Origin: an uncultured Lachnospiraceae bacterium
GTDB lineage: Bacteria > Bacillota > Clostridia > Lachnospirales > Lachnospiraceae
NCBI GenBank assembly: GCA_902774125.1
Contig: CACYHD010000001.1
Coordinates: 2,058-66,057, forward strand
Reading direction: 5' to 3'
DNA: 64,000 bases
Below, one piece after another: positions 37,968-58,961 of this stretch (positions are counted from its first letter, which is position 1; each line of letters opens with the position of its first letter). The notes under the pieces are model-generated. The model saw only the letters and a program-made list of their open reading frames with translations. It had not been told where the DNA came from and did no database searches. Position numbers and translations under genes: made by a program.

Positions 37968-37976
37968 TTTTTGCAT

Positions 37977-38010
37977 AAAAAAAGCAGATTTTTTTCAATC
38001 TGCTTTTTTT
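37977..38010. terminator. terminator overlapping the stop of the JAB-like gene
   Basis: AAAAAAAGCAGATT...AATCTGCTTTTTTT. Confidence 0.8.
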
Positions 38011-38645: not shown

Positions 38646-38672
38646 TCCTTTACTTACATATTCATGGTGTGG

Positions 38673-39207: not shown

Positions 39208-39256
39208 AGACGGTTTTTCTGGCTCCGTCATAACCATTTTATCACAATATGTGTAT
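39208..39256 (-). promoter_or_regulatory. CRISPR leader 2
   Basis: Homologous to leader 1 (AGACGGTTTT.CT.GCTCCGTCATAACCATTTTATCA). Confidence 0.75.
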
Positions 39257-39446
39257 TATTCAACTTTTCATAGTAATTACCGGCATCTTTTTTCGTCGAG
39301 GAATTCACAAAAACCGCCATTTTACAGCATTTTTTGTATTAGCATATCCTCGACGAAAAATTGCAATATAATTAGTGACTTCTATAACTCCACAATCTAT
39401 TTAATTGCTTTTAATTATAGATCATAAAGTATTTTATATTTCCCTA

Positions 39447-40691: not shown

Positions 40692-40692
40692 A

Positions 40693-41184
40693 TTACTTAC
40701 CTCCCTTCACTATCTCAACAACTCTGTAGTCTACAATCTTTGCAATGCCTTCGTCGGTGTATTGAATGTAGTTCTTAATCTTTAACTTAGCATCGTCATC
40801 ATACAATTCCGCTGGGAGCCTGTATTTTCCACCGCCAGTGCTAACCACTTCTATCGTTCCATATTGATCAGCGTCTTGTCGTGTTTTTGTAGTATCAATA
40901 TCTAAGAATTGTGTTTCTTCGATTGTATCTCTAGGGTCAGATTCATCTAGTGTTCTTACCTTAAAATCTTCAGAGATAGAGTTTCTCCAAATTCTAGTCT
41001 CGGACTCTTTATTGAAAACTCTTACCTCAAGCAAATGGTTGATGTCGATTGCATCCACATCGAACTTATCTAATGGCCATATGCCCAATTTCTTATCAGT
41101 GTAGAAAGGCATAATATATGACGCGTTTGTATCGCGAATCGCTTCAACCAATTGGTCTTTTTTGTATTTTTCAATTGTCATCAT
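40693..41184 (-). CDS. csx19: Csx19 (type III-D signature)
   Basis: LEVRVFNKESE, QFLDID, KIKNYIQY and DYRVV pattern; position between RAMP genes. Confidence 0.8.
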   Translation of the reverse strand: MMTIEKYKKDQLVEAIRDTNASYIMPFYTDKKLGIWPLDKFDVDAIDINHLLEVRVFNKESETRIWRNSISEDFKVRTLDESDPRDTIEETQFLDIDTTKTRQDADQYGTIEVVSTGGGKYRLPAELYDDDAKLKIKNYIQYTDEGIAKIVDYRVVEIVKGGK

Positions 41185-41194
41185 TCACACCTCC

Positions 41195-42463: not shown

Positions 42464-44712
42464 TACTTATTCTCCTCCTTCTTAATAGCGGCTCTGTACT
42501 TAAGTGTTTCAAATATATGCATTAAATAATCATATTTAAGTTTATGCTTTGTCTCATCTTTTAGACTAGCGTATTCTTCTTTCTTCAACTCTACGTCTAT
42601 ATCTTCAATCCACACATTTGCAATTTTTCTCTTTGACTTATCCCTTATGCTATTTACACGTTTCTTGAAATTTTCTTCCTTATTAGCAACTAACTCCTTA
42701 GAATCATATTCAGATTCAAGCAGCATCAACTTCACTCTACCAATAAATGAATTAGTAGCATCTCCAACAGTTGACATCTTACTTGCATCTCTACTTGCTT
42801 TCTCGTGCAATTTTTCACTCAAGTACTTAATCCTAATCTTTTCCATAATTGCTTTAACATCTTCTGAACAACTGTTGATATTTGTATTCACTTTATTCTC
42901 AACATTGTCAGATGCAACAGCAGTGTCAACCTTATCCCTGTCTTGAACATACTTAGAATAATATGATTCAGTTGCAATCTTAAGTTGACCGTAGCCTTCT
43001 TTGTTGTCGACACCTACCCACATAGATGTAGGAACACTCACATTCTCCAGGACATTAAATACAAATGAACTTCCCGCTGTAATAGCAGGTTTTGGAGCTT
43101 TACGCATATTCCAAACACCATAGTATCCTGTCTGTTTTTTACCTGTAGCTAGAATAAGTGGTCTATTCATATCTTCACTTATCTCGGAAGCGTCATCCAC
43201 AACATCTTTAGTTTTTGCAATTTCTAAAAATGTTTTTCCAACTACCTGTTCAATTTGGTTTTTGATCATCAATGCCACTTCTTCTACATCAGTAACATAT
43301 CCTGTTTCATTTTCAAATACTGAATCTGACTCTAAAACGACAACTAGTTTGTCCTCTGTAGTAATGTCCTGATTCTCAGTCTTTATGACTTTAAATACTT
43401 TATTAGAACCATCATTTTCCAATGTACATTTGCCATACTGAGCTGACTTAGACTTACCTAATCTTATATCTTGTTCACACATCAACTTCATTATTTCTTG
43501 AATAAGATCAGCATCACCTGTTATAGTTCCCGTAAAATACTGTCCAGGGCTAAGCACTTCTGACATGTACAAAAGTCGATCCATATCAATTTGCTTTCTG
43601 CGGTTATGATACACAACTTCATATACTGGTGCATATTTCTCAACTTCAAGTTTAGCCACTTCATCATTATAAACAAGACTAATAAACTTGTCTCTCAGTG
43701 GCTTAGGATATAGATTCTTTTTATTAGGTTTTGCATTAATACGTGTTGCATAATCAGCCGGATTTTCTTCGCCAGCTTCCTTATACTGACCCATACATAA
43801 AGGTGCTGGTTTGTAAATCTTACTAGCACTATTATTAGATGGATATGCATTAGAAAAAACTACATCTCCACTTACAAATAGTTTTTCAAAAGTATCATCA
43901 ACTTTATTTTTTCTTAAATAATTACCAGCCAATGCACCTTGTATCATTTGACCTTTAATATAAGGCATTGTAGCACTATCATTCTCAGAAGAAAGAAGAA
44001 GCGGCTGTTCATTGCGCAATGTGTATCTAATTGTAACTTTACCAGCCCCATTCAAAGCTATCTCATCATTATTAGAAGCCGACTGCTTATCCTGTTCTAA
44101 TGATACTTTGACATTGCCTAGACCACGGTTTCTGTTAAGTCCCATATGTCTAACAGCTTTACATGTTTTACTCAATATTTCTTCATATGATTCGTTTTCG
44201 TCTATTCCATCCACCTTTGCAAAGAAAACTAAGTTATCCCCTTCGGCAGATGTAGGATTATACTGATTAACAACTCTGATATATCTAAGAGTATTATCCT
44301 CAGCTACACCTTCCTTGTTAATCTTTGTTTGTGCAACGATGGTAGTATACTGTTCCAAAACATCCTGTGCAGTATATTTTTCATCACTACTATCCTGCAA
44401 ATCGCGCAGTTCACGATATATAGTCTTATAGTTATCTATGTATGCATCGGAAAATCTAATTCCCTTAGTAGAATCAGCTCCACTTTCTCCGAACATCAAC
44501 TTGATACATTCATCATCCTCTTCTTTTTCAGCAGTGTTGTAAACAATCCTAGCCGCATCTCTTAGAACACCTTTGATTCGTCTCGCAGGAATATAAGGAA
44601 GTCCTACTTTGTCGTAGCAGACATCACTGTCCACTATTCCAGCATATGAATAACCTGATCCAATACATAGATTGGATTGTAATTCTATTCTTATTAAAGC
44701 CATCCTTTTCAC
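42463..44712 (-). CDS. csx10: Csx10-like Cas7-Cas5 fusion with probable C-terminal Cas11-like helical domain
   Basis: LPYIPARRIKGVLR, GLNRNRGLG, IKGQMIQGAL, LGKSKSAQYG and VGVDNKEGYG, then an all-helical tail. Confidence 0.82.
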   Translation of the reverse strand: MKRMALIRIELQSNLCIGSGYSYAGIVDSDVCYDKVGLPYIPARRIKGVLRDAARIVYNTAEKEEDDECIKLMFGESGADSTKGIRFSDAYIDNYKTIYRELRDLQDSSDEKYTAQDVLEQYTTIVAQTKINKEGVAEDNTLRYIRVVNQYNPTSAEGDNLVFFAKVDGIDENESYEEILSKTCKAVRHMGLNRNRGLGNVKVSLEQDKQSASNNDEIALNGAGKVTIRYTLRNEQPLLLSSENDSATMPYIKGQMIQGALAGNYLRKNKVDDTFEKLFVSGDVVFSNAYPSNNSASKIYKPAPLCMGQYKEAGEENPADYATRINAKPNKKNLYPKPLRDKFISLVYNDEVAKLEVEKYAPVYEVVYHNRRKQIDMDRLLYMSEVLSPGQYFTGTITGDADLIQEIMKLMCEQDIRLGKSKSAQYGKCTLENDGSNKVFKVIKTENQDITTEDKLVVVLESDSVFENETGYVTDVEEVALMIKNQIEQVVGKTFLEIAKTKDVVDDASEISEDMNRPLILATGKKQTGYYGVWNMRKAPKPAITAGSSFVFNVLENVSVPTSMWVGVDNKEGYGQLKIATESYYSKYVQDRDKVDTAVASDNVENKVNTNINSCSEDVKAIMEKIRIKYLSEKLHEKASRDASKMSTVGDATNSFIGRVKLMLLESEYDSKELVANKEENFKKRVNSIRDKSKRKIANVWIEDIDVELKKEEYASLKDETKHKLKYDYLMHIFETLKYRAAIKKEENK

Positions 44713-44715
44713 CTC

Positions 44716-46356
44716 CTATATTTCCCTTTTATCGTCGAACCAAATATCATAAACAAGTACCATATCATATATCAATTTTTGAATCTTATCAGAACTCAAA
44801 TTCTCTATGTCGAAATAATCTTTTGGCAATTTGTGATGTGCTTTGATTCTTTCTAATTCCTTGTCAAAACTTGCCTTGCTATTAAAAGCATGCGTCAACA
44901 AGTTTTTAACATTGTTACGTCCAACTTCATTATGATTTAGTTTTTTTTGCATCTTCTTAACTACTTCGTCTGTAATACTTGCCGGCTCTTCATCTTGATC
45001 AGTGATTACCTTCCAAGGCCTTGAAGAGTTTTCTTCAAAATGTTCTTTTTCTCTTATCATATCTAATGAACTGTTAATACCGCTTTGGCAGTATTGATAA
45101 TCAATCCATGTTGTATTTTCTTTCTCATGCGCTTTTTTCTTAGCATTGTCACAGCATTCCTCTGCAATTCTATAAGCATCGGAAAAAGGTGTATGGCTAT
45201 GGAATATAGCTATTCCCGCACAAGAAGTGAACTTATTCTCATTAGTATTATTGGCAACTGCTTTAAGATAAGCTAAGCACAAATCATATGCCAATCTAGC
45301 ATTACATATGAATGTTGCTTCATCTCCTGCACCAACTATTCTTCGATATCCATACTTCCATAAATCTTTTTTATTGCCGTTATACTCGTTTGTTACGACA
45401 GGCACTCCGCCTTTAACCTCTACTCCATCAGGTGATACCTTTGTTAGATATTCATCTAATTTATCGTATCCCGCTACTACGGTTACATCATTAATAGTCT
45501 TAGAGAAACTCTGGAAGTTCTTAACTGCATTCTCCCATCTCTTGCCTTCTGCATCTTTAGCTTCACGATCAGCAACAATTGCTCCCATATTGTTTCCGTC
45601 AATGAATGCAACTGCAAGCAAACTTTCTTCACCTTTTTTATGAATATAATTATCTAATTCTTTTCCTCCCGATGTATCCATACCATTAACTTTATTCTTT
45701 TTTTCCTCATAATCAGTATACTTTTTATACTCTTTAAGTTTAGCTGATGATTCTTTAGAAACTTTGTCATCTTTAGAAGCAGATTTATTACTATTGTCCC
45801 TTTCACACAGAGGAAAAGCTGTTTTTCTGTCAACCTGAACAAAAGGTAGAACATTGCATCTATCAACTGCTATATCCATGTTTTCTACCATATTGTGTTT
45901 CTTATATAATTTCTTTCTTGTAGCATAAAAATCTTGCTTATCAAGTTCTGCCGGTACATAAGAACAAATCATATTGAGCCCATAGTAATCCTCTAGAAGT
46001 TTTTTAGAGAAAACCTTGTTGATTCTTTCGCATGTATCAGCGCAGTCGAATAGTATATTAAGGTTTCCACCTCCCTCATATACTACTATTCCCTTGTGTT
46101 CGTCTTCCTTAAACATAGCATCACTATAAACTTCGTTTGACGATTTGACTATAGAAACACCAACCGACTTAGCTGCATCCACAAGTCTTCCAGTAGGATG
46201 GCCTTCTTTCTGATCATCATGATGGTCAAAAAAACCGTTTTTGATTATTTGTGATGCTCCTATAATTTCTTTAATTCTATTAGTTCTATATATGAACTTC
46301 TGCTTAGCACGAAAATCATATAGTGCTAGAACTGGTCCTTGTATTTTATTTGACAT
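44716..46356 (-). CDS. cas10: type III-D Cas10, HD-less, with variant palm motif GAGDE
   Basis: YDFRAKQKFIY, YEGGGN, AFIDGNNMG, RIVGAGDE, CAGIAIFHSHTPF and AEECCDNAKK; start reassigned to ATG 46356. Confidence 0.9.
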   Translation of the reverse strand: MSNKIQGPVLALYDFRAKQKFIYRTNRIKEIIGASQIIKNGFFDHHDDQKEGHPTGRLVDAAKSVGVSIVKSSNEVYSDAMFKEDEHKGIVVYEGGGNLNILFDCADTCERINKVFSKKLLEDYYGLNMICSYVPAELDKQDFYATRKKLYKKHNMVENMDIAVDRCNVLPFVQVDRKTAFPLCERDNSNKSASKDDKVSKESSAKLKEYKKYTDYEEKKNKVNGMDTSGGKELDNYIHKKGEESLLAVAFIDGNNMGAIVADREAKDAEGKRWENAVKNFQSFSKTINDVTVVAGYDKLDEYLTKVSPDGVEVKGGVPVVTNEYNGNKKDLWKYGYRRIVGAGDEATFICNARLAYDLCLAYLKAVANNTNENKFTSCAGIAIFHSHTPFSDAYRIAEECCDNAKKKAHEKENTTWIDYQYCQSGINSSLDMIREKEHFEENSSRPWKVITDQDEEPASITDEVVKKMQKKLNHNEVGRNNVKNLLTHAFNSKASFDKELERIKAHHKLPKDYFDIENLSSDKIQKLIYDMVLVYDIWFDDKREI

Positions 46357-48046
46357 TTTTTCTCTCCTTGTCATAATGAATATTATTCGCATCCAATGCA
46401 AAAGCAAAAGCGCTATATTTATTAACACCGGCTGTGTCATATTTTTTATAATTAGATTCTACTTTTACATCCTTTAAAGAATAGAATTTTATATTTTCAT
46501 TTATTGCTTCTTTCAAAAGATTTCTAATACTCTGATACTCTCTCGAAAGATTTCTCTTAAATTTTTCGTTCACAATCGCTAGTTTTCCCAATAAATCCGA
46601 AGCATGATTCATACAGTTTCTCAATTCTTTTATACAAGTATAGTATTCCAGTATTCGAGCTATCTCTTCTTTATAATCAATACTATTTTGAGAATATATC
46701 AATTTATACTCTTGAGGTATATTATTACCACCATTAGTATTATTTTCTTCTGCAGTTTCGATCACTATTTTTTTACGTTGATGGCGTCTTTTCAGTATTA
46801 GTACTGCATCAATCATACTCTCCCTTTTAATGGTCTTTTTAGTATTATTTCCGCTCAGATCAATAGACTTTACTTTTTCTGTTTTTTTTCTCAGATTTAT
46901 TCCTATAGGTAAAATGGCATCATAATAACTTTTAAAATCCTTACTTATTTTTTCAATATCTTTTTCTTCATAACCCTCCTTAACATTCTTATAATCCTTT
47001 TCTTTATTTCTTAATAACTCCAACATTATATCCATTTGTGAATAATCATCAAATATTTTTTCAGTGTACAATGTCGCGGCTTGTTGTATCATTCCATTTT
47101 TTACACACCAATCCACCCAATCTAAAATGCTATTTTCATCTGAAAGAGGCATTTTATTTTCTATATTTTTAACCAGCCCCCTTACCATACTTGAAAACAA
47201 ATTGCTATCAATTTCATTTTTTTTGCACTCTTCTATACATTTTTTTATTTCTTCAATATTATTTTGGAATTCCTCCACATAAGAAATATTCATATTCTCT
47301 GAAAACTTGTTCAGACTTGATATAAGCCTACTAACATCATCACTAACATTGTCTTCTTTTTCTTTTAGTGCCATTAGTTTTACTGCACTTCCAGTTGTTA
47401 CAAATTCATCCACCGCATTTATTATGGAAAACATTGAATAAACACGATCTAATGGATGCAATATACCATCCTTATCCTGGTTGTACTCTGAATAAACACT
47501 TTTAGCACAAATCTTATTGTTATATTCAAGAAATCTGAGAATTGCTAACATCAAGAAATTTATATCTCTCATTCCGCCAGAACAATCGATATAATAATAA
47601 TCATTTTTTTCGGATAATTCCGCTATACGTCTATATATTTTCTCTATTTTTTCTTCCGTATTTTCGATTTTTTCATCAACCTCAATTTTTTTAATGACTA
47701 TTGTTTCCCCGTCTACAATAATGCTATTATCCGCAAAATCATTGGTGATTATTGGTTGCACATTTTCATATTTTTTTTCACGCAAGTATTTAGCAATATT
47801 ATTAACAAAATTCGAATAAGCGCTTTCTCCATCATCTTTTTGTTTACGAGATTCTTCAGTAACCAAACATATAATAGTATTAATATCATGTTGGTCCGCT
47901 TGAGCCTGATGAACCAAGTATTTAGTCGGTGCATCATTTGTTTGTGCACCTTTAAATTCAGTATTTGTATTTTCCACAGTATAACTTTTTGCAGCCATGC
48001 CAGGTCGATATGTGCTAATAAATGTTAACAATGTTCCGTTTTCCAT
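46346..48046 (-). CDS. csx1: Csx1/Csm6-like CARF-HEPN ribonuclease (TM1812-type)
   Basis: CARF motif YIDCSGGMRD; VDEFVTTGSA; HEPN R-x4-H motif LRNCMNHA. Confidence 0.8.
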   Translation of the reverse strand: MENGTLLTFISTYRPGMAAKSYTVENTNTEFKGAQTNDAPTKYLVHQAQADQHDINTIICLVTEESRKQKDDGESAYSNFVNNIAKYLREKKYENVQPIITNDFADNSIIVDGETIVIKKIEVDEKIENTEEKIEKIYRRIAELSEKNDYYYIDCSGGMRDINFLMLAILRFLEYNNKICAKSVYSEYNQDKDGILHPLDRVYSMFSIINAVDEFVTTGSAVKLMALKEKEDNVSDDVSRLISSLNKFSENMNISYVEEFQNNIEEIKKCIEECKKNEIDSNLFSSMVRGLVKNIENKMPLSDENSILDWVDWCVKNGMIQQAATLYTEKIFDDYSQMDIMLELLRNKEKDYKNVKEGYEEKDIEKISKDFKSYYDAILPIGINLRKKTEKVKSIDLSGNNTKKTIKRESMIDAVLILKRRHQRKKIVIETAEENNTNGGNNIPQEYKLIYSQNSIDYKEEIARILEYYTCIKELRNCMNHASDLLGKLAIVNEKFKRNLSREYQSIRNLLKEAINENIKFYSLKDVKVESNYKKYDTAGVNKYSAFAFALDANNIHYDKERKNVK

Positions 48047-48048
48047 CT

Positions 48049-48780
48049 CTATTCCTCCACTTCTTTTATCATTCCAAATCCCTGGGCGTTTTTTGATCCG
48101 ATTCCGACATTGAGGATCATGGTCAAGGCTTTGGGGTTGCCGTATAGTTTAAATTTTCCGAGCCAACCTGTCATTGGCGTTCGTTTATATCTTGTCGCGT
48201 ACTCGATTGGTGTGCTACCATCAGCTATCGCGATTAACATATCCGATGTTGCATCCTCTCCGCAGAGAGTTACGTACTTACGCTTGTAATTGTCGTTGAT
48301 TAGTTCTACGAACTCTTCTTCGTCTGGTGCGAAAAACTGCATCGCCTTGGTATGTAAGTCAGTCCTGTGAGCCATGATAGGCGAAAGCGTCTCCACCAGT
48401 ATTTCGTTTTTCATCGTAAATACATCAACTAGTTCCGTCTTGATGCTTGTATATTTCTTCTTACCGAACTGAATTCCATCTTCCAATAAAACAGTATTCA
48501 ATTCTTTTATCCAATCATCATAGACACTTGATATAGAAAACTTAATGTCACCTCTATATGTCAATCTACCTAATTCTTCAGTATAGTCACCTTCGATTAG
48601 GCTGAAGGTAAACAACTTGTACGTTCGTTTACCGTACTTGACCCCTTCATCGTGTAGCCATTTGGTGTACTCTGGATTACCTTTAGAGCTCACGCTATAT
48701 ATGGCCGCTTGAAGAATTTGATGATAATTCTGAGGAACTGTAAGCGGACTATCAAGTGTTACCGTTACATCCAATCTCAT
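48049..48780 (-). CDS. cas6: Cas6 crRNA-processing endoribonuclease
   Basis: KLFTFS, TLSPI and the C-terminal Gly-rich loop GIGSKNAQGFG. Confidence 0.95.
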   Translation of the reverse strand: MRLDVTVTLDSPLTVPQNYHQILQAAIYSVSSKGNPEYTKWLHDEGVKYGKRTYKLFTFSLIEGDYTEELGRLTYRGDIKFSISSVYDDWIKELNTVLLEDGIQFGKKKYTSIKTELVDVFTMKNEILVETLSPIMAHRTDLHTKAMQFFAPDEEEFVELINDNYKRKYVTLCGEDATSDMLIAIADGSTPIEYATRYKRTPMTGWLGKFKLYGNPKALTMILNVGIGSKNAQGFGMIKEVEE

Positions 48781-48798: not shown

Positions 48799-49158
48799 TT
48801 AGTATTCTCTAAATCCCATAAACTTGAATACCGCTGTTTTGACCGTCTCTCCGTTCTCGTTGACGGTTTCTTTAGTTTCACGCACTGTGCATGAAGATAG
48901 TACTTTGATATTTCTTCTCTTTAATTCAGTCACTAAAGCAAATGTCAAACTAAAATCTCCTACACAAAGAACAGCAGCTGGTTTTTGGCTAGCTATCTTT
49001 TCCGCCTCATCCTTTGCCATCTGCTGTATATCTTCTTTAGTATCCGAAGGCGACACATTCTTAAATGGTATATCCACTACTTCCCCATATTGCAATGCCG
49101 CCTCATATTGTTCTTTTGACCATCTATCAGATGGGTGGTTTGAATAATTAATAAACAT
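48799..49158 (-). CDS. small Csx15/Csx20-like protein, candidate ring nuclease
   Basis: FINYSNHPSDRWS...GEVVDIPF...VLCVGDF...F.FMGFREY pattern typical of small type III ancillary proteins; exact family not resolved. Confidence 0.6.
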   Translation of the reverse strand: MFINYSNHPSDRWSKEQYEAALQYGEVVDIPFKNVSPSDTKEDIQQMAKDEAEKIASQKPAAVLCVGDFSLTFALVTELKRRNIKVLSSCTVRETKETVNENGETVKTAVFKFMGFREY

Positions 49159-49225: not shown

Positions 49226-50485
49226 TTAATCTTCGTATGTCATTTTTCCTAACTTTTCATTTATTGTTTTCAGAGATCTCGAATAAGAACTAGGTTTTAC
49301 ATCAATAAATTCTGCAACCTCTTTATCCGTATATTCGACTCCTTTGAGAACCATATTGTAGTATATTCCATATAAATTCTCAGTAGATTCCGGTTCAGGC
49401 TCTACAGTACTTCTAGCATAGTCGTATTTGAACATTTTTCTCATAAAGTCACTGTCATCTTGAGACATTATTGTATATATCTCTTTGTTTCCAGCAGGCT
49501 CTTTATCGTAAAATTCTTTGCCGTCGTCTGTTTTGAGTTCTTTCATTATGTTTTTAGTCGCATCTAATGCCAAAATCGCACGGTGATTAGCTCTAGTTAA
49601 ACTCAAGTATCGTTTAAATAGTTCTTCCATTCCTGCTTTAATAGTCTGTGATTTATCATTAAACAAATTATCCAGCTGTTCTTTCTGTTTTTCGTCCTCT
49701 ATGTTGTCTATCAAACTTATTTCTTCATCACCGTCAAGAGAATTAATATGATCCGAAACAACCAAAACTCCTCCTGATTTCATGTATTTTTCAACTTGTT
49801 TGAAAGTCTCTTCAGTGTGTTTTTTGTATTGAGGATCATCTCTCATTATGTCAAGAATATCCTGCTCACTAAGACATGTATATGCAACATCCCCTTTCAT
49901 ATGCTCAAGAAATTCTTCCTCAATTGGACGCATATAATTAGGCTCTTCTTTCATCCTCTCAACAGCTTCCTCTTCAGTGTAATAATTACAATTCATTGAA
50001 GCATGAAGAGATCTCGCATCACAAATCAATTTGTAGACAGTTCTACTAATTCTAATAGGCTCTTCCTTTAGATAATAATCAATCCATACATTATCGTAAA
50101 CGCTACGATAGTATGTATAGAACTTTGCACCTTTAGTACTAGAAAAATACTTTAAAGCCCTTGTTACAGCTTCAAGAGCAGCGACGTTATCATACTCTGG
50201 AAGAAATGTATTGTCAGCCATTAATGAGCCATGCTTTTTGATTCCTTTAGTTCCAATAAATTTAATAGCACTATCAATCGCTTCATCGTAATCCTGATCG
50301 TCATCGATGTCATCATAATAAATTTTAGAATCTAGTTTTGATCCATCAAGATAATACACCAACAGAAGTATCTCATCACGATACTTGTTATCTACATCTT
50401 TTTCCAAAACCTCTTTACGTTTTTCATCACTCATTTGAAATAGAGGATGATTATTTAATTGTTCTAATTTCTCTTTCCTAGTCAT
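49226..50485 (-). CDS. divergent sigma70-family factor inside the cas operon
   Basis: Region 2-like ALKYFSSTKGAKFYTYY...EEPIRISR (compare AVEKFD..KG.KFSTYA...RTIRIP); region 3.2-like SLDGDEEISLIDNIED; region 4-like YTDKEVAEFIDVKPSSYSRSLKTINEKL. Confidence 0.75.
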   Translation of the reverse strand: MTRKEKLEQLNNHPLFQMSDEKRKEVLEKDVDNKYRDEILLLVYYLDGSKLDSKIYYDDIDDDQDYDEAIDSAIKFIGTKGIKKHGSLMADNTFLPEYDNVAALEAVTRALKYFSSTKGAKFYTYYRSVYDNVWIDYYLKEEPIRISRTVYKLICDARSLHASMNCNYYTEEEAVERMKEEPNYMRPIEEEFLEHMKGDVAYTCLSEQDILDIMRDDPQYKKHTEETFKQVEKYMKSGGVLVVSDHINSLDGDEEISLIDNIEDEKQKEQLDNLFNDKSQTIKAGMEELFKRYLSLTRANHRAILALDATKNIMKELKTDDGKEFYDKEPAGNKEIYTIMSQDDSDFMRKMFKYDYARSTVEPEPESTENLYGIYYNMVLKGVEYTDKEVAEFIDVKPSSYSRSLKTINEKLGKMTYED

Positions 50486-50495
50486 TTTCCGCTCC

Positions 50496-51107
50496 CTAAT
50501 CCATCTTTAATAGTTTCTTTAAGAATTCTTCTGGTTTCTGTAGTTTCAGATCATCAAGATCCTTAATAGTTCTATTCAAAAATACTAGATTAGTAATTTC
50601 GTAAAAGAATGCTTCTCTTTCTTTTCCTTCGTTTCTCTGTACTTCGCCGTAGTAAACGCCCTGCACCTTTACGTTGCGGCGAATGTACTCTAGTGAGTCA
50701 AGTAGGTATGCCATCATCAGTGACATAACCTTAGTTCCGTATGTTATACATGCGTATACATCAGAGTCTTCTTCTATAGCGTTAAGTACCTGCATGAATA
50801 GTTTTACGCCTGTGTCGTATTCTTGATTTTCTGGAACAGCGACATCCACTATCTGCTCTGGCTTAATGCCAAGCTCTGCTGCTTCATCGTAAAACATCTT
50901 TAAGTTAGTATCAGAATCATCATTTTTAAATCTTACTGTAATAACTTGTGTCTCGATTTCATCTTCCTGATATCTTTTGATTACAGGAATAATAGGAAAT
51001 CTTGTTTCCATGTTTGTGTCAAAATCTACTCCCTGAGTTCTCTTGTATACTTGAGGATTCAATTTCCCTCCCATCATAGGAATAACTGTAATAAATACAT
51101 TTTTCAT
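50496..51107 (-). CDS. stand-alone CARF-domain protein (TM1812-like), no effector domain
   Basis: VFITVIP N-terminal strand; VYACITYGTKVMS (compare DxTHG/DITYG); GVYYGE; 203 aa, no HEPN motif. Confidence 0.7.
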   Translation of the reverse strand: MKNVFITVIPMMGGKLNPQVYKRTQGVDFDTNMETRFPIIPVIKRYQEDEIETQVITVRFKNDDSDTNLKMFYDEAAELGIKPEQIVDVAVPENQEYDTGVKLFMQVLNAIEEDSDVYACITYGTKVMSLMMAYLLDSLEYIRRNVKVQGVYYGEVQRNEGKEREAFFYEITNLVFLNRTIKDLDDLKLQKPEEFLKKLLKMD

Positions 51108-51279: not shown

Positions 51280-51308
51280 ATTATAGCCCTTCCCGCTTCT
51301 TTTCACAA
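51280..51308 (-). promoter_or_regulatory. possible sigmaA promoter for the CARF-sigma-cas operon
   Basis: TTGTGA-17-TATAAT on the minus strand. Confidence 0.45.
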
Positions 51309-51357: not shown

Positions 51358-53658
51358 TTATTCTACCTTGACTGTTAGTGTTGAAGGGTCTGATTCTAGC
51401 AAGTTGCCGTCATCTTCTGCGTCTTCTAATGAGCCTGTCACCTCAACCACTATTACATCGCCTACGTACACTTCTGATACTTCGAAATGGATTGCTCCGT
51501 CATCTGCTGGGTATGCTCTCTCTACCGGCTTGTCGCCGTTAATGCTGTATTTTACTGTATACATTTCTGGATCCAAGCCCTCTGAAGCTTCGTCTGGATT
51601 GATATCGAATTCAACTGTCTTTTTGGCCTTCTTCCACTGTGCATACATGCAAACTACTGCGCCATCTTTTTCGGCTAGATTCTTCACTGTGTCACCTGAA
51701 TTGTATACGTTCTCTGCATCATCCTCGTCCAAACTCCATCCTATGAACTTGTAACCGTCCCTTGTTGGAACCTCTTCTGTTAGTTTTGCTTCCTGGTCAT
51801 ATACACATTCAGTGTCCGCGATAGTGAAGGCGTTGCCACCGTTTTTCTTATACTGAATCTTGTAGTTGTTAGCTTCGTACTCAAGTTCTAGCTGGATAGT
51901 TCCGTTGGCCTTGGATAGCTTGCTAGCTGTAGTGTTGGCCTTAAAAACTGTGTCCGGCGCACTGTCGCCTGTGAACTTGTAACCGCTGATATGGTATCCC
52001 ACCTTGGCAAACTTCTCGTCGTCAGGATATGGCTGGAACTTAACCTCGTCGCTTACTGCAAGCTTATAGTCATCGCCGTCCTGGTATTCGCTCTTTTTCT
52101 TGCCATCAACAGTCAATAATTCAAAACCAAGTCCTTTGATAGTATATTTCTTGTCTCTTGTGACAGGCTTTACGATGTATACATACACATTGTTATTTAG
52201 AGGGAAAGATTTAATAGAGTCACCAGTTAGTGACTGTTGTGTCGTTTTAAATGCCATATTGTCAACAGTTAACACAACCACACCTACTAGTTCTTTATCA
52301 TCAGGTATTTTGAAAGAGTCTATTAAGTCAATTTTACTGTTACCAGCTACGTCTTTTTTACCATTCTCTGTCTCTACTCTAGTCTTTGCAGCCTTGACCT
52401 TAATTGCATCTCCGAACACACTATTTTCATATAAATACTCATACACATTGTAGTTATCAATCTCTATGTTACCTTTTTCTCTTTTAGGATTATCGCTGTC
52501 CTTTATAGGATTATCATTAAACGAAGTCTCATCCATTTCTCCCATCTCTTTTCCTTTCAAAACAACCTTAGAAATATTATTTCCTTCAAATGCATAGTAT
52601 CCAACCGATGGTTTATTTCCCGCTAGAACAACCTCTACCAACTCATTGTTTCCAAAAGAACAATCATCAATTTCTACATTATCACCACTTATAGTTACTT
52701 TTTTAATATTATTTCCCCAAAATGCTTCCTCACCAATTTTCTTAACACTTGCAGGTATATTTATATCAGTTATATTATTCTCATAAAATGCGACTGAACT
52801 TATTTCTTTTACCGCATTCCCCAATTTCACAGTTTTAATAGCGTTATTACTGAAGCAAAATCCTCCTATCTTCTTTACTCCATTAGGAATAATTACTGTT
52901 CCTGCTATATTATTATTTTCAAATGCGCCACTACCAAGTTTAGCTAAAGACTGTGGAAAACTAACACTTTTTAAATTGCACTCCATAAAGGCGCTTTCTT
53001 CTATGTTCTTCAAATTAGCGCACTGAGACAAGTTAACGCTTCCCAAACTGTCATTTTCAGAAAATGCGCACACTCCAATCTTTTCAATAGACTTAGGAAG
53101 ATTAATGCTCTTTAAATTATTATTAGAAAATGCCCCCCATTCATACTCTTCATCCTCAGATGGTCCATTACATATCTTTTTCAACTTGCTATCTGCCGGA
53201 AACTCTACGCTAGTTAGACAACATTCTGAGAAGGCTGAACCACCTATTTCTGTAACATTCTTAGGGATTACAACTTTAGATACATATTTGTAAAAAGCTT
53301 CTGAGTGAGCATCCTTTTTCTTATTCTTTCTAGCCTCCTTACACTGCTTGCACTCGCATTCGTAGTTCTGATCATTAAGAATCTTAGTTACATTGTAGCT
53401 TTTCTTGTCGATCTTAACTGTGTTAGGATAGCTAATAGTTTTGTCCGCTTTAGTAATTTTCTGAGTACGAACACGTAGTCCAACAGAGTTAGTATCCTTG
53501 TAGTAATAGTAATGCCACTTATCGTTGTCACATGTTCCACTTATATTCTTAGGGCCTGCCGCCTTTACCTCCTTCGCGCCTAGATGCAATCCGCCTAATA
53601 ATGTTGATACTGCCAAAACACTTGCTACAACCATTGAAATAACTTTTTTCATTTTCAT
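51358..53658 (-). CDS. secreted BspA-type leucine-rich-repeat surface protein with InlB B-repeat-like domain
   Basis: Signal peptide; repeats IP..VT.IG..AF..N.L..V; PTRDGYKFIGWS. Confidence 0.85.
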   Translation of the reverse strand: MKMKKVISMVVASVLAVSTLLGGLHLGAKEVKAAGPKNISGTCDNDKWHYYYYKDTNSVGLRVRTQKITKADKTISYPNTVKIDKKSYNVTKILNDQNYECECKQCKEARKNKKKDAHSEAFYKYVSKVVIPKNVTEIGGSAFSECCLTSVEFPADSKLKKICNGPSEDEEYEWGAFSNNNLKSINLPKSIEKIGVCAFSENDSLGSVNLSQCANLKNIEESAFMECNLKSVSFPQSLAKLGSGAFENNNIAGTVIIPNGVKKIGGFCFSNNAIKTVKLGNAVKEISSVAFYENNITDINIPASVKKIGEEAFWGNNIKKVTISGDNVEIDDCSFGNNELVEVVLAGNKPSVGYYAFEGNNISKVVLKGKEMGEMDETSFNDNPIKDSDNPKREKGNIEIDNYNVYEYLYENSVFGDAIKVKAAKTRVETENGKKDVAGNSKIDLIDSFKIPDDKELVGVVVLTVDNMAFKTTQQSLTGDSIKSFPLNNNVYVYIVKPVTRDKKYTIKGLGFELLTVDGKKKSEYQDGDDYKLAVSDEVKFQPYPDDEKFAKVGYHISGYKFTGDSAPDTVFKANTTASKLSKANGTIQLELEYEANNYKIQYKKNGGNAFTIADTECVYDQEAKLTEEVPTRDGYKFIGWSLDEDDAENVYNSGDTVKNLAEKDGAVVCMYAQWKKAKKTVEFDINPDEASEGLDPEMYTVKYSINGDKPVERAYPADDGAIHFEVSEVYVGDVIVVEVTGSLEDAEDDGNLLESDPSTLTVKVE

Positions 53659-53698
53659 AATAAAACTCCTTTCAGACTCGTTTATTGTTCTCTATTTA

Positions 53699-53729
53699 TA
53701 TATACTGTCATTTCACAAGGGAATTAACA
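53699..53729 (-). promoter_or_regulatory. bipartite motif copy 3
   Basis: TATATACTGTC-N12-AATTAACA; 40 nt upstream of ATG 53658. Confidence 0.75.
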
Positions 53730-53836
53730 CTTTTGATGAAAAATATTTTTCCATCAATATCCCCGGCACTATCGTGTTTCACTAGCACCCTGCCGGAACA
53801 CTACTTTCCAGCACCAGGCAACATCCTGCCACAACG

Positions 53837-54913
53837 CTACATCTCCATCACCATGCAGTTTCCAGCATCCTCGATTCCGCTGTCATCGCGCATCTCCTTA
53901 GGTCTCACATAGATAATCTTCGCGTACTGCTGGTTGATTCCATTGCACATGATATACTCGGCCACAGTTTTCTCGTCGCTGTCTGCGTAAGTTTCCAGAA
54001 CAGTTTTGACCTCGTTGTCATAGTCGTCGATTGAAGAGATATGCTTCTCAGGCGCAACGGCATTCTTCTGAGTATCCATTCTGTAGATCGTGTGGCCTAG
54101 ATTCTCTTCAAGTAGCAGTCTGGACACGTCGAACACTCTTCCGATAATGCGATTGTTAGTCTCCTTATCCTCGTGTGGCGCGTAGTCGCAAACTATCATT
54201 ATTGAATTATCGTTAGGGGTATCCAGCTCTTTGACTAGTAGCTTGTCATCTGTTGCGGCCGAAAGATTCCAGTGAATATTCTTAATGTTGTCGCCCATTC
54301 GATACTCCCTAATTTGAAGAATCTCAGACACGTCATTGCCCACAACATGCTTGTAAGTTAGCTCGTCGCCCTCTGAAACCGTGTCCTCAAGTTCCGCGAT
54401 ATATGTCTCGCTCTCGTTAGGATAAATGTACGCGCAACCCTCAACGTTAACCTTCTTAGTTCTGTATGTTATATCGAACCAGTCGTAAATCTTGCACTCC
54501 TCAACCTTGATGTCAATTCGTCCACAGTACTTGCACTTAAGAGGAACCCTAATAGGCTTAACCTTTCTAGACTGTCTTCCGCGAATAGATATGTCGAACT
54601 TCACGCTCTCACTGCTGCCAAAAACAGCGTTGTCGCACTTGATACTGTTCTCGACGTGGTTAGCAGGGAAGATGCATCTATTGATTGGTGTGATCTGGAT
54701 GTAGCTTTTACCTGTCTCGTTGTCATAAACTATCTCGTACTTTATCTTTACGCTTTTGCACACAATCTGGTTGATCAAAACAACTAGACCTAATGCCCCT
54801 ACTGTGAATAGAAGCGCCCAAAGAGTAAGCTTAACGTTTGTTTTGACAAAAATAACTCCAAGTAATAAAACAATTCCTGCATAACCGATTCTGTTCTTCA
54901 TTTCATTCACCAT
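53837..54913 (-). CDS. DUF58-family protein
   Basis: N-terminal TM helices; QIREYRMGDNIKNIHWNLSA...LLVKE; MoxR operon context. Confidence 0.85.
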   Translation of the reverse strand: MVNEMKNRIGYAGIVLLLGVIFVKTNVKLTLWALLFTVGALGLVVLINQIVCKSVKIKYEIVYDNETGKSYIQITPINRCIFPANHVENSIKCDNAVFGSSESVKFDISIRGRQSRKVKPIRVPLKCKYCGRIDIKVEECKIYDWFDITYRTKKVNVEGCAYIYPNESETYIAELEDTVSEGDELTYKHVVGNDVSEILQIREYRMGDNIKNIHWNLSAATDDKLLVKELDTPNDNSIMIVCDYAPHEDKETNNRIIGRVFDVSRLLLEENLGHTIYRMDTQKNAVAPEKHISSIDDYDNEVKTVLETYADSDEKTVAEYIMCNGINQQYAKIIYVRPKEMRDDSGIEDAGNCMVMEM

Positions 54914-54926
54914 TTCCTTTCATTAA

Positions 54927-57212
54927 TTATCTTAAGCCTTTCCAGACAACCATCTTGATTTTGGTACCAAGCTTGGCCTCTTTCCATCTTTCATCTGTCA
55001 CAGTTTCCATAGTCTCAATCATCAAGTCGGCGTCTCTTTCCTGTATCTCATAGCGGCTGAACTTAATCTTCTCTAGTAGTTCGTAAACTTCCTCGCTCAC
55101 CATATCCTTAAGCTCTACGCCTGTAGCCTCGCACATATCGTAGATGTACTTAGACGCTGCACCCACTCTAATGTCTAGGTTCTCGCTGTCTAAGCGATTG
55201 TTGCGGATGCGCTTGATAACTAGTCTTCTAATAGCGAGAGCTATAATAGCCAAAACTATCAAAACACCTATAACTATTCCAATCATTATTAAGATTTCTA
55301 TCAATCTCTGGTTGTAACTCTTGCGTTCCTTGCTTCTAGATGATCCACCTGAGCCACCGCCGCCTACCTGAGGCTCTGTGCTCTTAAGTGAACTTCCGCC
55401 ACCCTGGTCATCTTCCTTGTAAAAGCCAGGTGTAACCTCGACTGGTGTGAAACCAAGTCCTGCAATATATATCTCAACCCAGGCATGTGCCTTGTCGTTT
55501 TTAATCTTTACTTCAGTGCTCTTAACTTCGTTAGCTGCATAGTAGCCTTCCACATATCTCGCTGGAATCCCATAATATCTAAACATCAATGTCGCAACTG
55601 TCGCGAAGTGTGGAGAGAAGCCTCTCTTGTCCTTAAGAAGAATCTGCTCAAGGTAGTTGCCGTCAGGATTGTACTCTGCACATTTTTTGCTGTACTTGAT
55701 ATGCCCCTTCAAGTAACTTCTTACTGTTGATATCGCATCATCTATATTGTTGCTGCATGCTGGGATGTTTTGTTCTAGAATCGCTTTTTCATCGGCTGGA
55801 ACATCCCTGTACGCCTTAGTGTTTACGAACTTGCGATACTCAGTCTCGACAGTGGCGAACTGCTGCTGATTAGATGTCTTAAACTCCTGATTCTCATACC
55901 ACTGTGCCTGAGATAACTTGATGTAATCACCATCACTAATCGCCTTAGTAGTAAATGTGTACTCGCTCACCTTTCCCATAAAAGAACATCTGAAGTTCAC
56001 GTCGTTCTTAGAATCAACCAGTCCGTTAAGATTATCAAGCGTTTCTGTAACGTACTGGTACTTCTGTGACGCACTCACATTGTTGATATGAATAGTATTC
56101 TGCTGAATCTCATTCTCATCGATTTCCTTGGCCTCCCAAGTACAACTTGTAAAGAAAGCATTCTGTGTCAAAGGATATATTCTGTTTTGGTAAAAGAAAT
56201 CCATAATGCCTGTTGGATAAACATTCTCGTCGTTGTCGCTCCACCCCTTCTCAGTGTACTTGCAACCCACATAGCCCTTAAGATGTAACTCGCAACCCTC
56301 TTCCATCTTCACGTTAAGTCTGACCTCATTATCCTTGGCAGGATACTCGTGAAATCTCTTGAACGCGCCCTCAGGATAGTCGCTCTTGCCGTAATAAATG
56401 TTCTCAAGTCTGTATGACACCTCATCTCTTAGATCATCGATGCTAGTCAAACCTTCATATCTAGCCCAAGTCAAAAACGCTGCTGAACAAGCTAGAAGCA
56501 CACCAAGAATCACCCATACAACCTTTGCGTTCCTGCTACCCTTAGTCATCTTGATATTAGATAGATATAGAACAGCAAAAATTGAAAGAAGTGCTGCAAC
56601 AACGTAGGCTACCTTGCCCTCACCCTTGAACCAGATGTTGGCCATGGTTGACATAATTAGCAGAGCACTTATAATGTAAGTTCTTCTGAAGTACAATAAA
56701 AAAGCCACAACCGCTGTGACTATAAATGTAATCGCGCAGTACGCTAAGACGATATCTATGTTCATACTCTTAAGGTTTTCAACATATGCGATATGGTTTT
56801 CTGCCATGTTTTTGTTGATGGTTCTGATAACGCTGTTCACGATTCCCATCATTCCGTTCTCTGTAAATAGTACAAGCGCTAAAGTAGGAACAACGATTTC
56901 AAGTAATGTTATAGACATTACCTTAGTAAATGACGCGCTACGCTTAGTCAAAAGTTTGAATAGAAAAGCTGACAAAAACGCTGCAAACACACTCGCATAC
57001 GCAATTAAGGAAATTCCAAGGAAGTGATTAGCGATATTAAGTATTCCGAATCCCTCACCAAAACCAAGTGTCATAACGATTGCACATATTGAAGTTAGAA
57101 GCACGAACATAGGGATGTTGCTCATAGATTTAGCCTCAACTGAAGAAAGGTCTACTGATACATCGCTTGTCTTTTTCACTCTCTGAATGTTTTCTCTTCT
57201 TAGTTTTTTCAT
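54927..57212 (-). CDS. membrane transglutaminase-like domain protein
   Basis: Multiple TM helices; RGFSPHFAT...GIPARYVEGY...HAWVEIY. Confidence 0.85.
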   Translation of the reverse strand: MKKLRRENIQRVKKTSDVSVDLSSVEAKSMSNIPMFVLLTSICAIVMTLGFGEGFGILNIANHFLGISLIAYASVFAAFLSAFLFKLLTKRSASFTKVMSITLLEIVVPTLALVLFTENGMMGIVNSVIRTINKNMAENHIAYVENLKSMNIDIVLAYCAITFIVTAVVAFLLYFRRTYIISALLIMSTMANIWFKGEGKVAYVVAALLSIFAVLYLSNIKMTKGSRNAKVVWVILGVLLACSAAFLTWARYEGLTSIDDLRDEVSYRLENIYYGKSDYPEGAFKRFHEYPAKDNEVRLNVKMEEGCELHLKGYVGCKYTEKGWSDNDENVYPTGIMDFFYQNRIYPLTQNAFFTSCTWEAKEIDENEIQQNTIHINNVSASQKYQYVTETLDNLNGLVDSKNDVNFRCSFMGKVSEYTFTTKAISDGDYIKLSQAQWYENQEFKTSNQQQFATVETEYRKFVNTKAYRDVPADEKAILEQNIPACSNNIDDAISTVRSYLKGHIKYSKKCAEYNPDGNYLEQILLKDKRGFSPHFATVATLMFRYYGIPARYVEGYYAANEVKSTEVKIKNDKAHAWVEIYIAGLGFTPVEVTPGFYKEDDQGGGSSLKSTEPQVGGGGSGGSSRSKERKSYNQRLIEILIMIGIVIGVLIVLAIIALAIRRLVIKRIRNNRLDSENLDIRVGAASKYIYDMCEATGVELKDMVSEEVYELLEKIKFSRYEIQERDADLMIETMETVTDERWKEAKLGTKIKMVVWKGLR

Positions 57213-57250
57213 AACGTTACCTCCTTGGTTTTTCTATCATTTTATTACGA

Positions 57251-57850
57251 TTAGTCGGCGTCCTTGATGTTGTATGAGATCACAGGTTTCTTAACTGCCT
57301 TAACTACGTCGCCCACCTGGTCACTGTCGCCGTTCTCTCTGCCTTCATTACCATCTACTGCGTTACCACTGTTGCCGTTTCCTGCACCGTTGCCGTCACG
57401 TCCCTGCTCGCCAAAACCGCCGTCACCATTACCACTGTTGCCTTTACCCTTACCAGTCTTACCCTTGCGGCCATGTGACTTAGTGTCATTTCCTCGTCTC
57501 TCGCCCTGCTGCTTCTGTTCTGGCATATCCTGCTTTTCCATATTGTTCTTATTCTGCTCGGCTTTCTCAGGCTGCTCTATGTTAGGCATAGTCTGATCCT
57601 GCTTTACAGTCTCTTCATCCTGGCGCTGTTCCTGCTTAGTCTGCTCCTGATTCTGCTCTTCCTTCTTCTTATTAGCATTGTCACCATTTCCATCGTTACG
57701 GTTACCCGTCTTCTTCTTAAGGGACTTAGCCTGCTTTTCGAACTTGAAGGTTGGAGCCTCATACTTGGCCTCTTGCTTTTTGCATCCTGTTAATACTACT
57801 GAACCGATAATCATCATTGCCAAAAACATAATTCCAAATAACTTTTTCAT
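57251..57850 (-). CDS. low-complexity lipoprotein (Gln/Glu-rich and Gly/Asn-rich)
   Basis: Lipobox LTGC; GNGDGG/GNGAGNGNSG segments. Confidence 0.65.
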   Translation of the reverse strand: MKKLFGIMFLAMMIIGSVVLTGCKKQEAKYEAPTFKFEKQAKSLKKKTGNRNDGNGDNANKKKEEQNQEQTKQEQRQDEETVKQDQTMPNIEQPEKAEQNKNNMEKQDMPEQKQQGERRGNDTKSHGRKGKTGKGKGNSGNGDGGFGEQGRDGNGAGNGNSGNAVDGNEGRENGDSDQVGDVVKAVKKPVISYNIKDAD

Positions 57851-57921
57851 CTCTCTTACCTCCTAAAATTCAAAAATGTATTGTTGTTCAAATTAGTTAT
57901 TTATACTAGATTGGTGCGGCA

Positions 57922-58920
57922 TTACACCGCCTTGATGTCAAACATACCGTTGTAGTCGTTTCTGTAACCTGCCACCTGAGGTGCAACTACAGCACCCAGC
58001 ATCTCGCTAAGCACCTTGCCTATAGCGTTTTCTTCTCGTCTATATGATGGTGTTAAGATTAGTCTGTGTGAGAAGACACTAGGAATAACCTGCTGAACAT
58101 CCTCTACTGTCACATAATCTCTGCCGCTGATGAACGCATGTGCCTTAGCCATCTTAGTAAGCGCCTTGGCTCCTCTAGGACTGATTCCAACTGTAATCTT
58201 ATCTTTTTGGTTACGAGTGTAAGCACATAGTCTAACTATATATCTAGCTACGTTCTCGTCCATGTAAGTCTTCTTAACCTCCTGTCTCATATGATTCATC
58301 TCTTCGGCGTTAATCACTGCCATTACTCTATCTAGTGAGTTGCTTCCGTTGTCGTCCATTAGCATTGAAACCTCACCTTCCTCGTCAGGATAACCCATGC
58401 TAGTCTTAATAATGAATCTGTCTAGCTGAGCCTCTGGAAGCTGCTGTGTACCGCCACTAGTGTTAGGGTTCTGAGTCGCAATTACCATAAATGGTGAAGG
58501 AAGTTCCCTAGTCTTACCGTCCGCTGTAACTGTACACTCCTCCATAACCTCTAGTAACGCAGCCTGAGTCTTGCCAGATGTTCGGTTAATCTCGTCCGCT
58601 AGTAGGATGTTAGTGAACACTGGGCCTCCTTCAAAATGCTTCTTATATTGTTCTCTTCCATCCTCGAATTTCTTCTCCATCATAACCATTCCAACTATAT
58701 CTGTAGGCATAGTGTCCGGTGTAAACTGAATTCTCTTCTGGTCAACCGCCATAGCCCTAGACAGAGTCTTAGCCAATACAGTCTTACCCAATCCCGGATT
58801 ATCCTCAAGTAACACGTGTCCTGATGCAAGCATCGCCATTACAACCTCTATAATCTTATCGTCTTTACCCTTAATAACTTTCTTAACCTCATTTACTAAT
58901 TCATTAATCATCTTGTTCAT
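57922..58920 (-). CDS. moxR: MoxR-family AAA+ ATPase
   Basis: GHVLLEDNPGLGKT, RIQFTPD, LADEINR, ATQNP, LPEAQLDRF and SPRG; start MNKMIN at 58920. Confidence 0.93.
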   Translation of the reverse strand: MNKMINELVNEVKKVIKGKDDKIIEVVMAMLASGHVLLEDNPGLGKTVLAKTLSRAMAVDQKRIQFTPDTMPTDIVGMVMMEKKFEDGREQYKKHFEGGPVFTNILLADEINRTSGKTQAALLEVMEECTVTADGKTRELPSPFMVIATQNPNTSGGTQQLPEAQLDRFIIKTSMGYPDEEGEVSMLMDDNGSNSLDRVMAVINAEEMNHMRQEVKKTYMDENVARYIVRLCAYTRNQKDKITVGISPRGAKALTKMAKAHAFISGRDYVTVEDVQQVIPSVFSHRLILTPSYRREENAIGKVLSEMLGAVVAPQVAGYRNDYNGMFDIKAV

Positions 58921-58961
58921 AATAAACTCCTTTCGAATCATCAATTATTTACTCACACTAA

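Follow-up and report, generated by a model that had tools for sequence, protein, structure and literature searches.

A stand-alone CARF protein encoded with a sigma-like partner in a type III-Dv CRISPR locus suggests a protease-free route from alarm to transcription

Type III CRISPR signalling is mostly known for switching on destructive enzymes. Its known transcriptional outputs are either proteolytic cascades (CalpL-CalpT-CalpS, and Craspase in type III-E) or fusions of a CARF domain to a helix-turn-helix (HTH), as in Csa3. In the CalpL-CalpT-CalpS cascade, cyclic tetra-adenylate (cA4) signalling reaches a sigma factor by way of a SAVED-Lon protease, an anti-sigma factor and a sigma factor resembling the extracytoplasmic function (ECF) type (PMC11229360, PMC12751052). 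Here we describe a type III-Dv locus in 64,000 nt of DNA from an uncultured Lachnospiraceae bacterium (assembly GCA_902774125.1, contig CACYHD010000001.1, positions 2,058 to 66,057; hereafter the window, with positions counted from its first letter). In this locus the gene for a stand-alone CARF protein of 203 residues (50496–51107, minus strand) is followed by the gene for a 419-residue sigma-like protein (49226–50485, minus strand). Comparative genomics suggests that through this pair the type III CRISPR alarm could act on transcription directly, with no protease in between. We put the probability that the CARF protein is the subunit that senses cyclic oligoadenylate (cOA), in this case cA4, and controls its sigma-like partner at roughly 0.55.

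Judged by analogy, CalpL-CalpT-CalpS is probably the functionally closest system. In both, the sensor and the sigma factor would be separate polypeptides, the latter encoded in the CRISPR locus. Unlike CalpL, however, the sensor in the window is a bare CARF domain, and its control over the partner would be direct and reversible rather than proteolytic; the partner, unlike CalpS, is not recognisable as an ECF sigma factor and looks more like a group 3 sigma factor with insertions. Membership of the Calp system was considered and rejected, the ten operon proteins giving no Lon or SAVED match and including no CalpT-like anti-sigma factor. The closest single protein in logic, again by analogy, would be Csa3, a CARF protein with a winged HTH that binds cA4 and couples a CARF domain to transcription. 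The 203-residue protein resembles Csa3 in being a nuclease-less CARF sensor, and the Csa3 structures 6wxq and 6w11 are among its fold matches; unlike in Csa3, its output would lie in a separate sigma-like protein. It was not assigned to Csa3, since only about 30 residues of short helices and no winged HTH follow the CARF domain and PADLOC returned no Csa3 match. With type III-E (Craspase, Csx30/Csx31/RpoE) the locus shares a CRISPR-associated sigma factor or likeness of one, and the best NCBIfam match of the partner is the III-E model NF041236. Type III-E, in contrast, has neither Cas10 nor cOA signalling, and its RpoE is controlled by way of a protease that cleaves Csx30; the locus in the window carries none of Csx29, Csx30 and Csx31. 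Type III-Dv lies on the evolutionary path to III-E.

The preliminary description of the window had raised a functional tie between the CARF gene and the sigma-like gene and named co-inheritance as a way to check it. We gathered 60 loci with a member of the CARF family from homologue-bearing contigs, GTDB genomes and JGI metagenomes and located the CARF genes with a hidden Markov model (HMM); 58 of the 60 were informative, that is, had at least 150 nt of sequence downstream of the CARF gene. In all 58, a homologue from one of the partner clusters follows the CARF gene on the same strand. The gap ranges from −215 to +55 nt, and most pairs overlap or lie within 30 nt (mostly −38 to +30 nt). Because the loci were retrieved with a pattern derived from the conserved CITYGTK motif, the 58 sample the part of the CARF family that keeps this motif. 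Additional look-ups of L094 and L095 (homologues from the first search), L096 (tandem CARF) and L097 (CARF protein with an N-terminal extension) gave the same arrangement. L024 and L041 are apparent exceptions. In L024 (5436–7632) a gene for a 166-residue Zn-ribbon protein with transmembrane helices is inserted before the partner, which matches the cluster A HMM at E 1.7e-137; this is the only locus in which the pair is not adjacent. In L041 a B-type partner is truncated.

A search of whole genomes found one CARF gene and one partner gene, adjacent to each other, in 10 of 10 other genomes of 1.9–8.8 Mb; the genome of the window likewise has one CARF gene and one partner gene, along with a single Cas10 gene, the one at 44716–46440. 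Pairwise identities of the CARF proteins and of the partners are correlated (r = 0.78 for 27 pairs; 0 of 2000 Mantel permutations reached this value). Mean identity is 21% among the partners and 47% among the CARF proteins, the partner being by far the faster to evolve. The invariable pairing, the one-to-one copy number in 11 genomes and the co-divergence speak for the proposed tie, and an association of the CARF gene with the sigma-like gene is strongly supported by these genome comparisons.

Complete partner open reading frames (ORFs) encode 268–424 residues and fall into two clusters, A (8, later 10 sequences, including that of the window) and B (36 sequences). Profile-profile comparison of the clusters gave probabilities of 2–8%, with an E value of 0.004 over the sigma2-like stretch and of 0.023–0.035 in other runs. 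The partner in L097 matches the HMMs of both clusters (4e-21 and 6e-6); this bridging sequence, together with the shared position and motifs, argues that A and B are homologous. In the window, exactly 10 nt separate the stop codon of the CARF gene from the start codon of the sigma-like gene (TAG-GGAGCGGAAA-ATG), as had been stated in the preliminary description. This spacer (50486–50495, minus strand), read directly from the sequence, contains the GGAG ribosome-binding site (RBS) of the sigma-like gene, an arrangement we read as probable translational coupling of the two genes.

A long operon on the minus strand begins with the CARF gene, whose ORF starts with ATG and is preceded by the RBS GGTGGAG. 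The PADLOC model PDLC01822 ("CARF2--CARF") matches residues 1–201 with model positions 1–196 of 201 (E 1.1e-51), and PDLC01821 matches at E 9.8e-41; the CARF-only family of the CARF2 clade is already catalogued by PADLOC (PDLC01820–01823), whose library includes the models of the CARF classification. An AlphaFold2 (AF2) model from an alignment of 22 homologues (predicted local distance difference test [pLDDT] 92.5, predicted TM-score [pTM] 0.88) has one CARF Rossmann-like domain, with a six-stranded core (residues 2–8, 53–60, 86–91, 115–120, 147–159 and 162–170) and a short helical tail (172–199). The top 24 Foldseek matches in the PDB are all CARF proteins (probability 1.00). Marinitoga Csx1-Crn2 ranks first with its CARF-HTH part (E 4e-8, query TM-score [TMq] 0.65, whole query aligned), and the next are the CARF domains of Csx1, Csm6, Can2, Csa3 and Crn1. 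Neither the AF2 fold nor scans of domain libraries revealed an effector domain in the protein. The model and its fold matches thus agree with the earlier account of a CARF-like Rossmann domain with a short helical tail and no effector. PDB sequence and profile searches with the protein gave nothing significant. The Pfam and NCBIfam scan gave a sub-threshold match to CARF_Card1 (7.8e-4). It also gave one to TIGR02221 (cas_TM1812) of 32.1 bits against a cut-off of 76.25 (E 1.1e-7, residues 74–200 only); membership was rejected, and TIGR02221 is a related family to which the protein does not belong.

A word-based search returned 23 homologues of the CARF protein, 12 of them full-length with 42–82% identity. 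Searching 1.84 billion cluster representatives with a profile returned 1188 relatives at E ≤ 1e-3 and 197 at E ≤ 1e-30, nearly all of 200–225 residues. The family is rare: among 399 genomes sampled from the class to which the window belongs, only that of the window itself has a stand-alone member, and a scan of viral contigs found no relative. Csx1 proteins of the CARF2 clade (Marinitoga Csx1-Crn2, PDB 8y75 and 8y7g) provide the best structural match and share the ligand-loop motif C/D-x-T-x-G-x-K. Unlike Csx1, the 203-residue protein ends after the first post-CARF helices, without a HEPN domain, and identity is 10–14%. The operon encodes a CARF-HEPN protein of its own, a 566-residue Csx1-type ribonuclease (46346–48046, minus strand; PADLOC Csx1/Csm6 E 3e-38; HEPN motif R476-NCMN-H). 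The two had been described as distinct, and BLASTP indeed finds no significant similarity between them (E 0.6); the stand-alone protein is not a recent copy of the CARF domain of this Csx1. A few of the relatives are tandem CARF-CARF fusions of 433–444 residues, which resemble single-chain pseudo-dimers (P0072, P0091, P0152). In L096 (6001–8566) a CARF-CARF fusion is followed by an overlapping 424-residue partner with an N-terminal Zn-ribbon and then by Cas10. The existence of such fusions supports a dimeric working unit.

In characterised CARF domains the ligand site is formed by the β1-α1 and β4-α4 loops. Residues that are nearly invariant in 163 CARF representatives are Y21, F37-P38, N68, E75, T122-x-G124-x-K126, Y153-G154 and D170. 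F37 and P38 fall in the β1-α1 loop and T122 (93% conserved), G124 (95%) and K126 (99%) in the β4-α4 loop, where the ligand-loop motif that follows β4 ([DN/C]-x-[ST]-x-G-x-[KR]) is present as C120-I-T122-Y-G124-T-K126. As the nearly invariant residues include those of the ligand-site loops, the pocket is probably under selection.

That the pocket is the best-conserved part of the protein would also suit a protein that is only a ring nuclease or a cOA sponge, setting the threshold and duration of Csx1 activity, with its adjacency to the partner reflecting co-regulation. Crn1 (Sso2081, Sis0455) and Csx20 are likewise small stand-alone CARF or CARF-like type III proteins that bind cA4. Crn1 is a ring nuclease of similar size and matches the fold with E about 2e-3 and TMq 0.44–0.49, and Csx15 shows that non-catalytic, sponge-like relatives of CARF proteins may exist (PMC12409355). 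The Crn1 structures, however, match the model in Foldseek at E 1.6e-3 to 1.4e-2, behind Csx1, Csm6, Can2 and Csa3. The closest fold and HMM matches are Csx1/CARF2 sensor CARF domains rather than Crn1, and the PADLOC matches of the protein include no Crn1/CARF7 model. Nor do the 163 representatives show an evident conserved Ser/Thr of the Crn1 type in the β1-α1 loop, in which I-P-L/M-Q dominates.

The operon moreover encodes Csx20 (119 residues; 48799–49158, minus strand; PADLOC Csx20 E 4.5e-33, NF040559 E 1.6e-12), and among 14 long loci at least 8 have Csx20 along with the pair. Published work shows Csx20 to be a ring nuclease specific for cA4 that is associated with cA4-dependent Csx1, and a second ring nuclease occurs in only ~4% of ring-nuclease-positive loci (PMC12409355). 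Given the presence of Csx20 and the rarity of loci with two ring nucleases, the CARF-only protein would be uneconomical as a mere ring nuclease. Nor would a ring nuclease need a strictly 1:1, translationally coupled and co-diverging partner, and an obligate sigma-like partner of this kind is a feature of neither Crn1 nor Csx20. We therefore regard a role confined to cleaving cOA, one of the options in the preliminary description, or to sequestering it, as disfavoured and rather unlikely.

The word "sigma" was the part of the preliminary description that fared least well. The 419-residue partner (pI 4.8) matches NF041236, the model for the RpoE-like sigma factor associated with type III-E CRISPR, at E 1e-5 (25.6 bits against a cut-off of 100). 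It also matches TIGR02937 at E 5e-5 (22.9 bits against 42.9; residues 104–414 on model positions 36–163 of 165) and Sigma70_r2 at E 0.035 (14.4 bits against 24). Its homologue in L001, 63% identical, again matches NF041236 (E 3e-6). Using hhalign against a local sigma-70 alignment built from the genomes of relatives, residues 107–151 aligned with regions 2.2–2.4 (E 1.4e-4, probability 52%; E 7e-3 with the expanded cluster A alignment), pairing "...ALKYFSSTKGAKFYTYYR...PIRISRT" with "...Fd...vKFsTYa...iRvSrs". Residues 384–417 aligned with the HTH of region 4.2 (E 4e-4), and the two matches are colinear, with the regions in their proper order. In cluster B, TIGR02937 is matched by 5 of 32 sequences, Sigma70_r2 by 4 of 32 and SigI models by several, and no other family recurs. 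A word-based search with the partner found only 2–5 proteins, and the partner set was therefore drawn from the loci themselves. The PADLOC scan gave no match for the 419-residue protein, and PDB searches with the partner profiles gave nothing significant.

The concordant sigma2 and sigma4.2 signals thus stand, whereas the sigma label itself, every match being sub-threshold, is the weakest part of the observation. The sub-threshold matches and the poor AF2 model of the partner leave room for a split effector, in which the partner would be an unrecognised helical effector or an HTH regulator (a cas repressor or activator, or a toxin) that the CARF protein activates in trans. The alignment of the CARF protein over its whole length to the CARF-HTH part of Csx1-Crn2 is consistent with a truncated Csx1. 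Canonical sigma factors have nothing that corresponds to the best-conserved partner motifs (cluster A, EPAG[DN]xxIY and PESLxxLYGIY[FY]N; cluster B, FEGFFTFD). Situated between the sigma2-like and the sigma4-like part, these motifs are candidates for elements to which the CARF protein docks. Models of the sigma-70 family, however, are alone in recurring in both clusters, and the sigma2-like and sigma4.2-like matches keep their order. A search of 350,000 PDB chains with even the poor model (pLDDT 44) brings up little but sigma chains: the top 50 Foldseek matches are nearly all sigma chains of RNA polymerase holoenzymes, with E ≥ 0.12 and none significant. A split effector seems improbable to us on this evidence, and the partner is, as the matches suggest, most probably a highly diverged member of the sigma-70 family that carries large insertions.

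Most long contigs have the pair within a III-Dv cassette or beside it, at its head in A-type loci and at its tail in B-type loci. The Cas10 of the window (44716–46440, minus strand; PF22335 E 1e-9) lacks an HD domain, carries DGNNMG (281) and GAGDE (370) and is the presumed source of the messenger. All aligned III-Dv pair loci retain the Cas10 palm motifs, DGNxMG and G-x-G-D-[DE], and a CARF-HEPN (Csx1) gene is almost always present in long pair loci. Because Csx20 is a cA4-specific ring nuclease associated with cA4-dependent Csx1, cA4 is the likely messenger.

In the Cas10 of the window, GAGDE replaces GGDD, and related pair loci have GDGDD, GGGDE or LAGDD. SAM-AMP rather than cOA is the reported product of a related III-D2 Cas10 that has a D-E pair (PMC13294483). 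The CARF protein might accordingly bind another ligand, such as SAM-AMP or some other Cas10 product, or might serve the III-Dv complex as a cOA-independent subunit. We hold this to be very unlikely. The locus has no CorA, the signature SAM-AMP effector, and it is CorA rather than CARF that serves the SAM-AMP systems reported to date (PMC13294483). It does have two CARF proteins and the cA4-specific Csx20, and the pair also occurs away from III-Dv complexes (L003, L019).

In the mechanism that we favour, in which the CARF protein senses cA4 and controls its partner, recognition of foreign RNA by the III-Dv complex would lead its HD-less Cas10 to make cyclic oligoadenylate, most probably cA4. 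The CARF protein, probably a homodimer by its likeness to other CARF proteins, would bind the ligand at the conserved pocket, and binding would change the conformation of the dimer and of its C-terminal helical tail. This change would alter the activity of the sigma-like partner, making the two genes a switch from alarm to transcription. We favour an anti-sigma-like polarity, in which the partner would be held in the absence of the signal and released when cA4 binds; alternatively, the cA4-bound CARF protein may act as a co-activator of the partner. With either polarity RNA polymerase would be redirected. We lean slightly to the anti-sigma-like polarity, given that the CARF gene precedes its partner, is coupled to it in translation and would give a stoichiometric product. 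Csx1 would provide a parallel ribonuclease output of the same signal, and Csx20, by degrading cA4, would be the likely off-switch that resets the system. It is from comparison that we infer cA4 as the ligand, the contact between CARF protein and partner, the sigma function of the latter, the polarity and the target promoters.

Several observations weigh against this mechanism. Adjacency and co-divergence are expected for any genes that are inherited together and do not prove an interaction. Every sigma match of the partner falls below its curated cut-off, the hhalign probabilities for the sigma regions are 27–52% and the AF2 model, built from a 9-sequence alignment, is poor; the partner may be something other than a working sigma factor. 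The 203-residue protein has no anti-sigma match in Pfam, NCBIfam or PADLOC, and the CARF fold has, to our knowledge, no relationship to the known anti-sigma domains. Ligand degradation is common among CARF domains, and this protein may also act as a ring nuclease. The protein of the window departs from its family at two well-conserved positions, carrying M12 in place of a Q that 83% of members share and E170 in place of a D present in 90%. In L003, L004 and L021 the contig with the pair encodes no cyclase.

Promoter sequences add to these points. The head of the operon resembles an ordinary sigma-A promoter: a candidate housekeeping-type match to the consensus, TTGTGA-17-TATAAT, lies about 170 nt upstream of the CARF start (51280–51308, minus strand), and in an alignment of upstream regions its −10 box is conserved in relatives (GGCTATAATAGTA, common to L001, L003 and L023). 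No candidate target promoter emerged, the upstream region of the CARF gene and the CRISPR leaders sharing nothing. A motif search over the CARF upstream region, the gap upstream of csx20 and the two CRISPR leaders yielded A/T-rich 8-mers only, with no private promoter. Between the TATAAT and the CARF start, related loci have a terminator-like hairpin (GTCCTTT…AAGGGAC followed by TTTTT; L003, 7120–7306; L008, 8805–9003; L023, 3380–3573), which may be a leader attenuator or simply the terminator of the upstream gene.

The pair also occurs in other company. In L019 (7382–18038) the gene order is CARF-HEPN, CARF, sigma-like, a 398-residue minimal Cas10-palm or mCpol-like protein (PF22335, 1e-13), a 1104-residue Upf1-like superfamily 1 helicase and a Sel1-repeat protein. 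This locus looks like a cOA signalling module that is free of a CRISPR complex and carries the CARF-sigma-like switch. In L003 (7304–11804), L004 and L021 the pair lies in a neighbourhood like that of the window, with MoxR, DUF58 and transglutaminase genes, and a 927-residue kinase replaces the III-Dv cassette. The kinase gene begins 2 nt after the pair, and its product has a Ser/Thr-kinase domain (Pfam Pkinase, 6.8e-7), a weak match to PADLOC PD-T4-6, C-terminal Zn-ribbons and an N-terminal R-x5-H. Its occurrence both with an mCpol-like cyclase (L019) and with a kinase (L003, L004, L021) indicates that the pair behaves as a portable module. A more specific proposal, which we advance tentatively and consider doubtful, is that the CARF-only protein is a protease-free anti-sigma factor gated directly and reversibly by cOA. 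It would travel with its private sigma partner as a portable cassette across III-Dv loci, mCpol with Upf1-like helicase, and defence kinases.

The operon of the window encodes, in order, the CARF protein, the sigma-like protein, Csx20, Cas6, Csx1, Cas10, a Cas7-Cas5/Csx10-like fusion, Cas7-2x, Csx19 and a TIGR03986 Cas7-insertion protein, and is followed by two CRISPR arrays. The Cas6 endoribonuclease gene lies at 48049–48780 (minus strand; TIGR01877 E 7.7e-30, PF01881 E 7.9e-27). The type III-Dv effector genes occupy 39447–44712 on the same strand and were assigned by NCBIfam and Pfam matches: the Cas7-Cas5(Csx10)-like fusion (42463–44712), Cas7-2x (41195–42463), Csx19 (40693–41184) and the Cas7-insertion protein (TIGR03986; 39447–40691). 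Cas10, the Cas7-Cas5 fusion, Cas7-2x, Csx19 and the Cas7-insertion protein together with CRISPR arrays identify the system as type III-Dv, and the architecture of the Synechocystis III-Dv system matches that of the operon (PMC11026444, PMC13294483).

Both arrays were located by repeat search on the minus strand. Array 2 (38671–39207) has 9 repeats, which end in ATTGAAAC on that strand, and array 1 (37227–37511) has 5 repeats of a diverged variant. Within 37227–39446 the leader ends of the two arrays are near-identical (…ATATT[G/A]TGATAAAATGGTTATGACGGAGC…AAAACCGTCT) and resemble an extended −10 promoter. A RadC/JAB-like gene follows each array (that at 37995–38645 is intact), and in L003 the pair is likewise flanked by RadC genes. 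Immediately upstream of the operon is a cluster of genes for a MoxR AAA+ protein, a DUF58 protein, a transglutaminase and leucine-rich-repeat surface proteins (51358–58944). The MoxR/DUF58 cluster is syntenic in L001, L003, L008 and L024, and the site therefore appears to be a conserved integration spot for variable defence cargo.

We found no publication in the full-text literature that describes the pairing of a CARF protein with a sigma-like protein, and an earlier mention in work on CARF classification is possible. What appears to be new here is the obligate sigma-like partner; the CARF family itself had been catalogued before. If the proposed control is real, the type III alarm would reach transcription by a simpler, reversible route in which a bare CARF protein acts on its dedicated sigma-like factor and Csx20 is the built-in reset, and the existence of a whole catalogued clade of CARF proteins without effectors would be explained. 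A very divergent sigma family would likewise gain a function and, if that family is real, the known sequence space of sigma-70 would widen. Should the CARF protein prove to be a protease-free anti-sigma factor, it would represent a third and mechanistically distinct link between type III CRISPR systems and RNA polymerase, after CalpL/T/S and Craspase/Csx30/RpoE.

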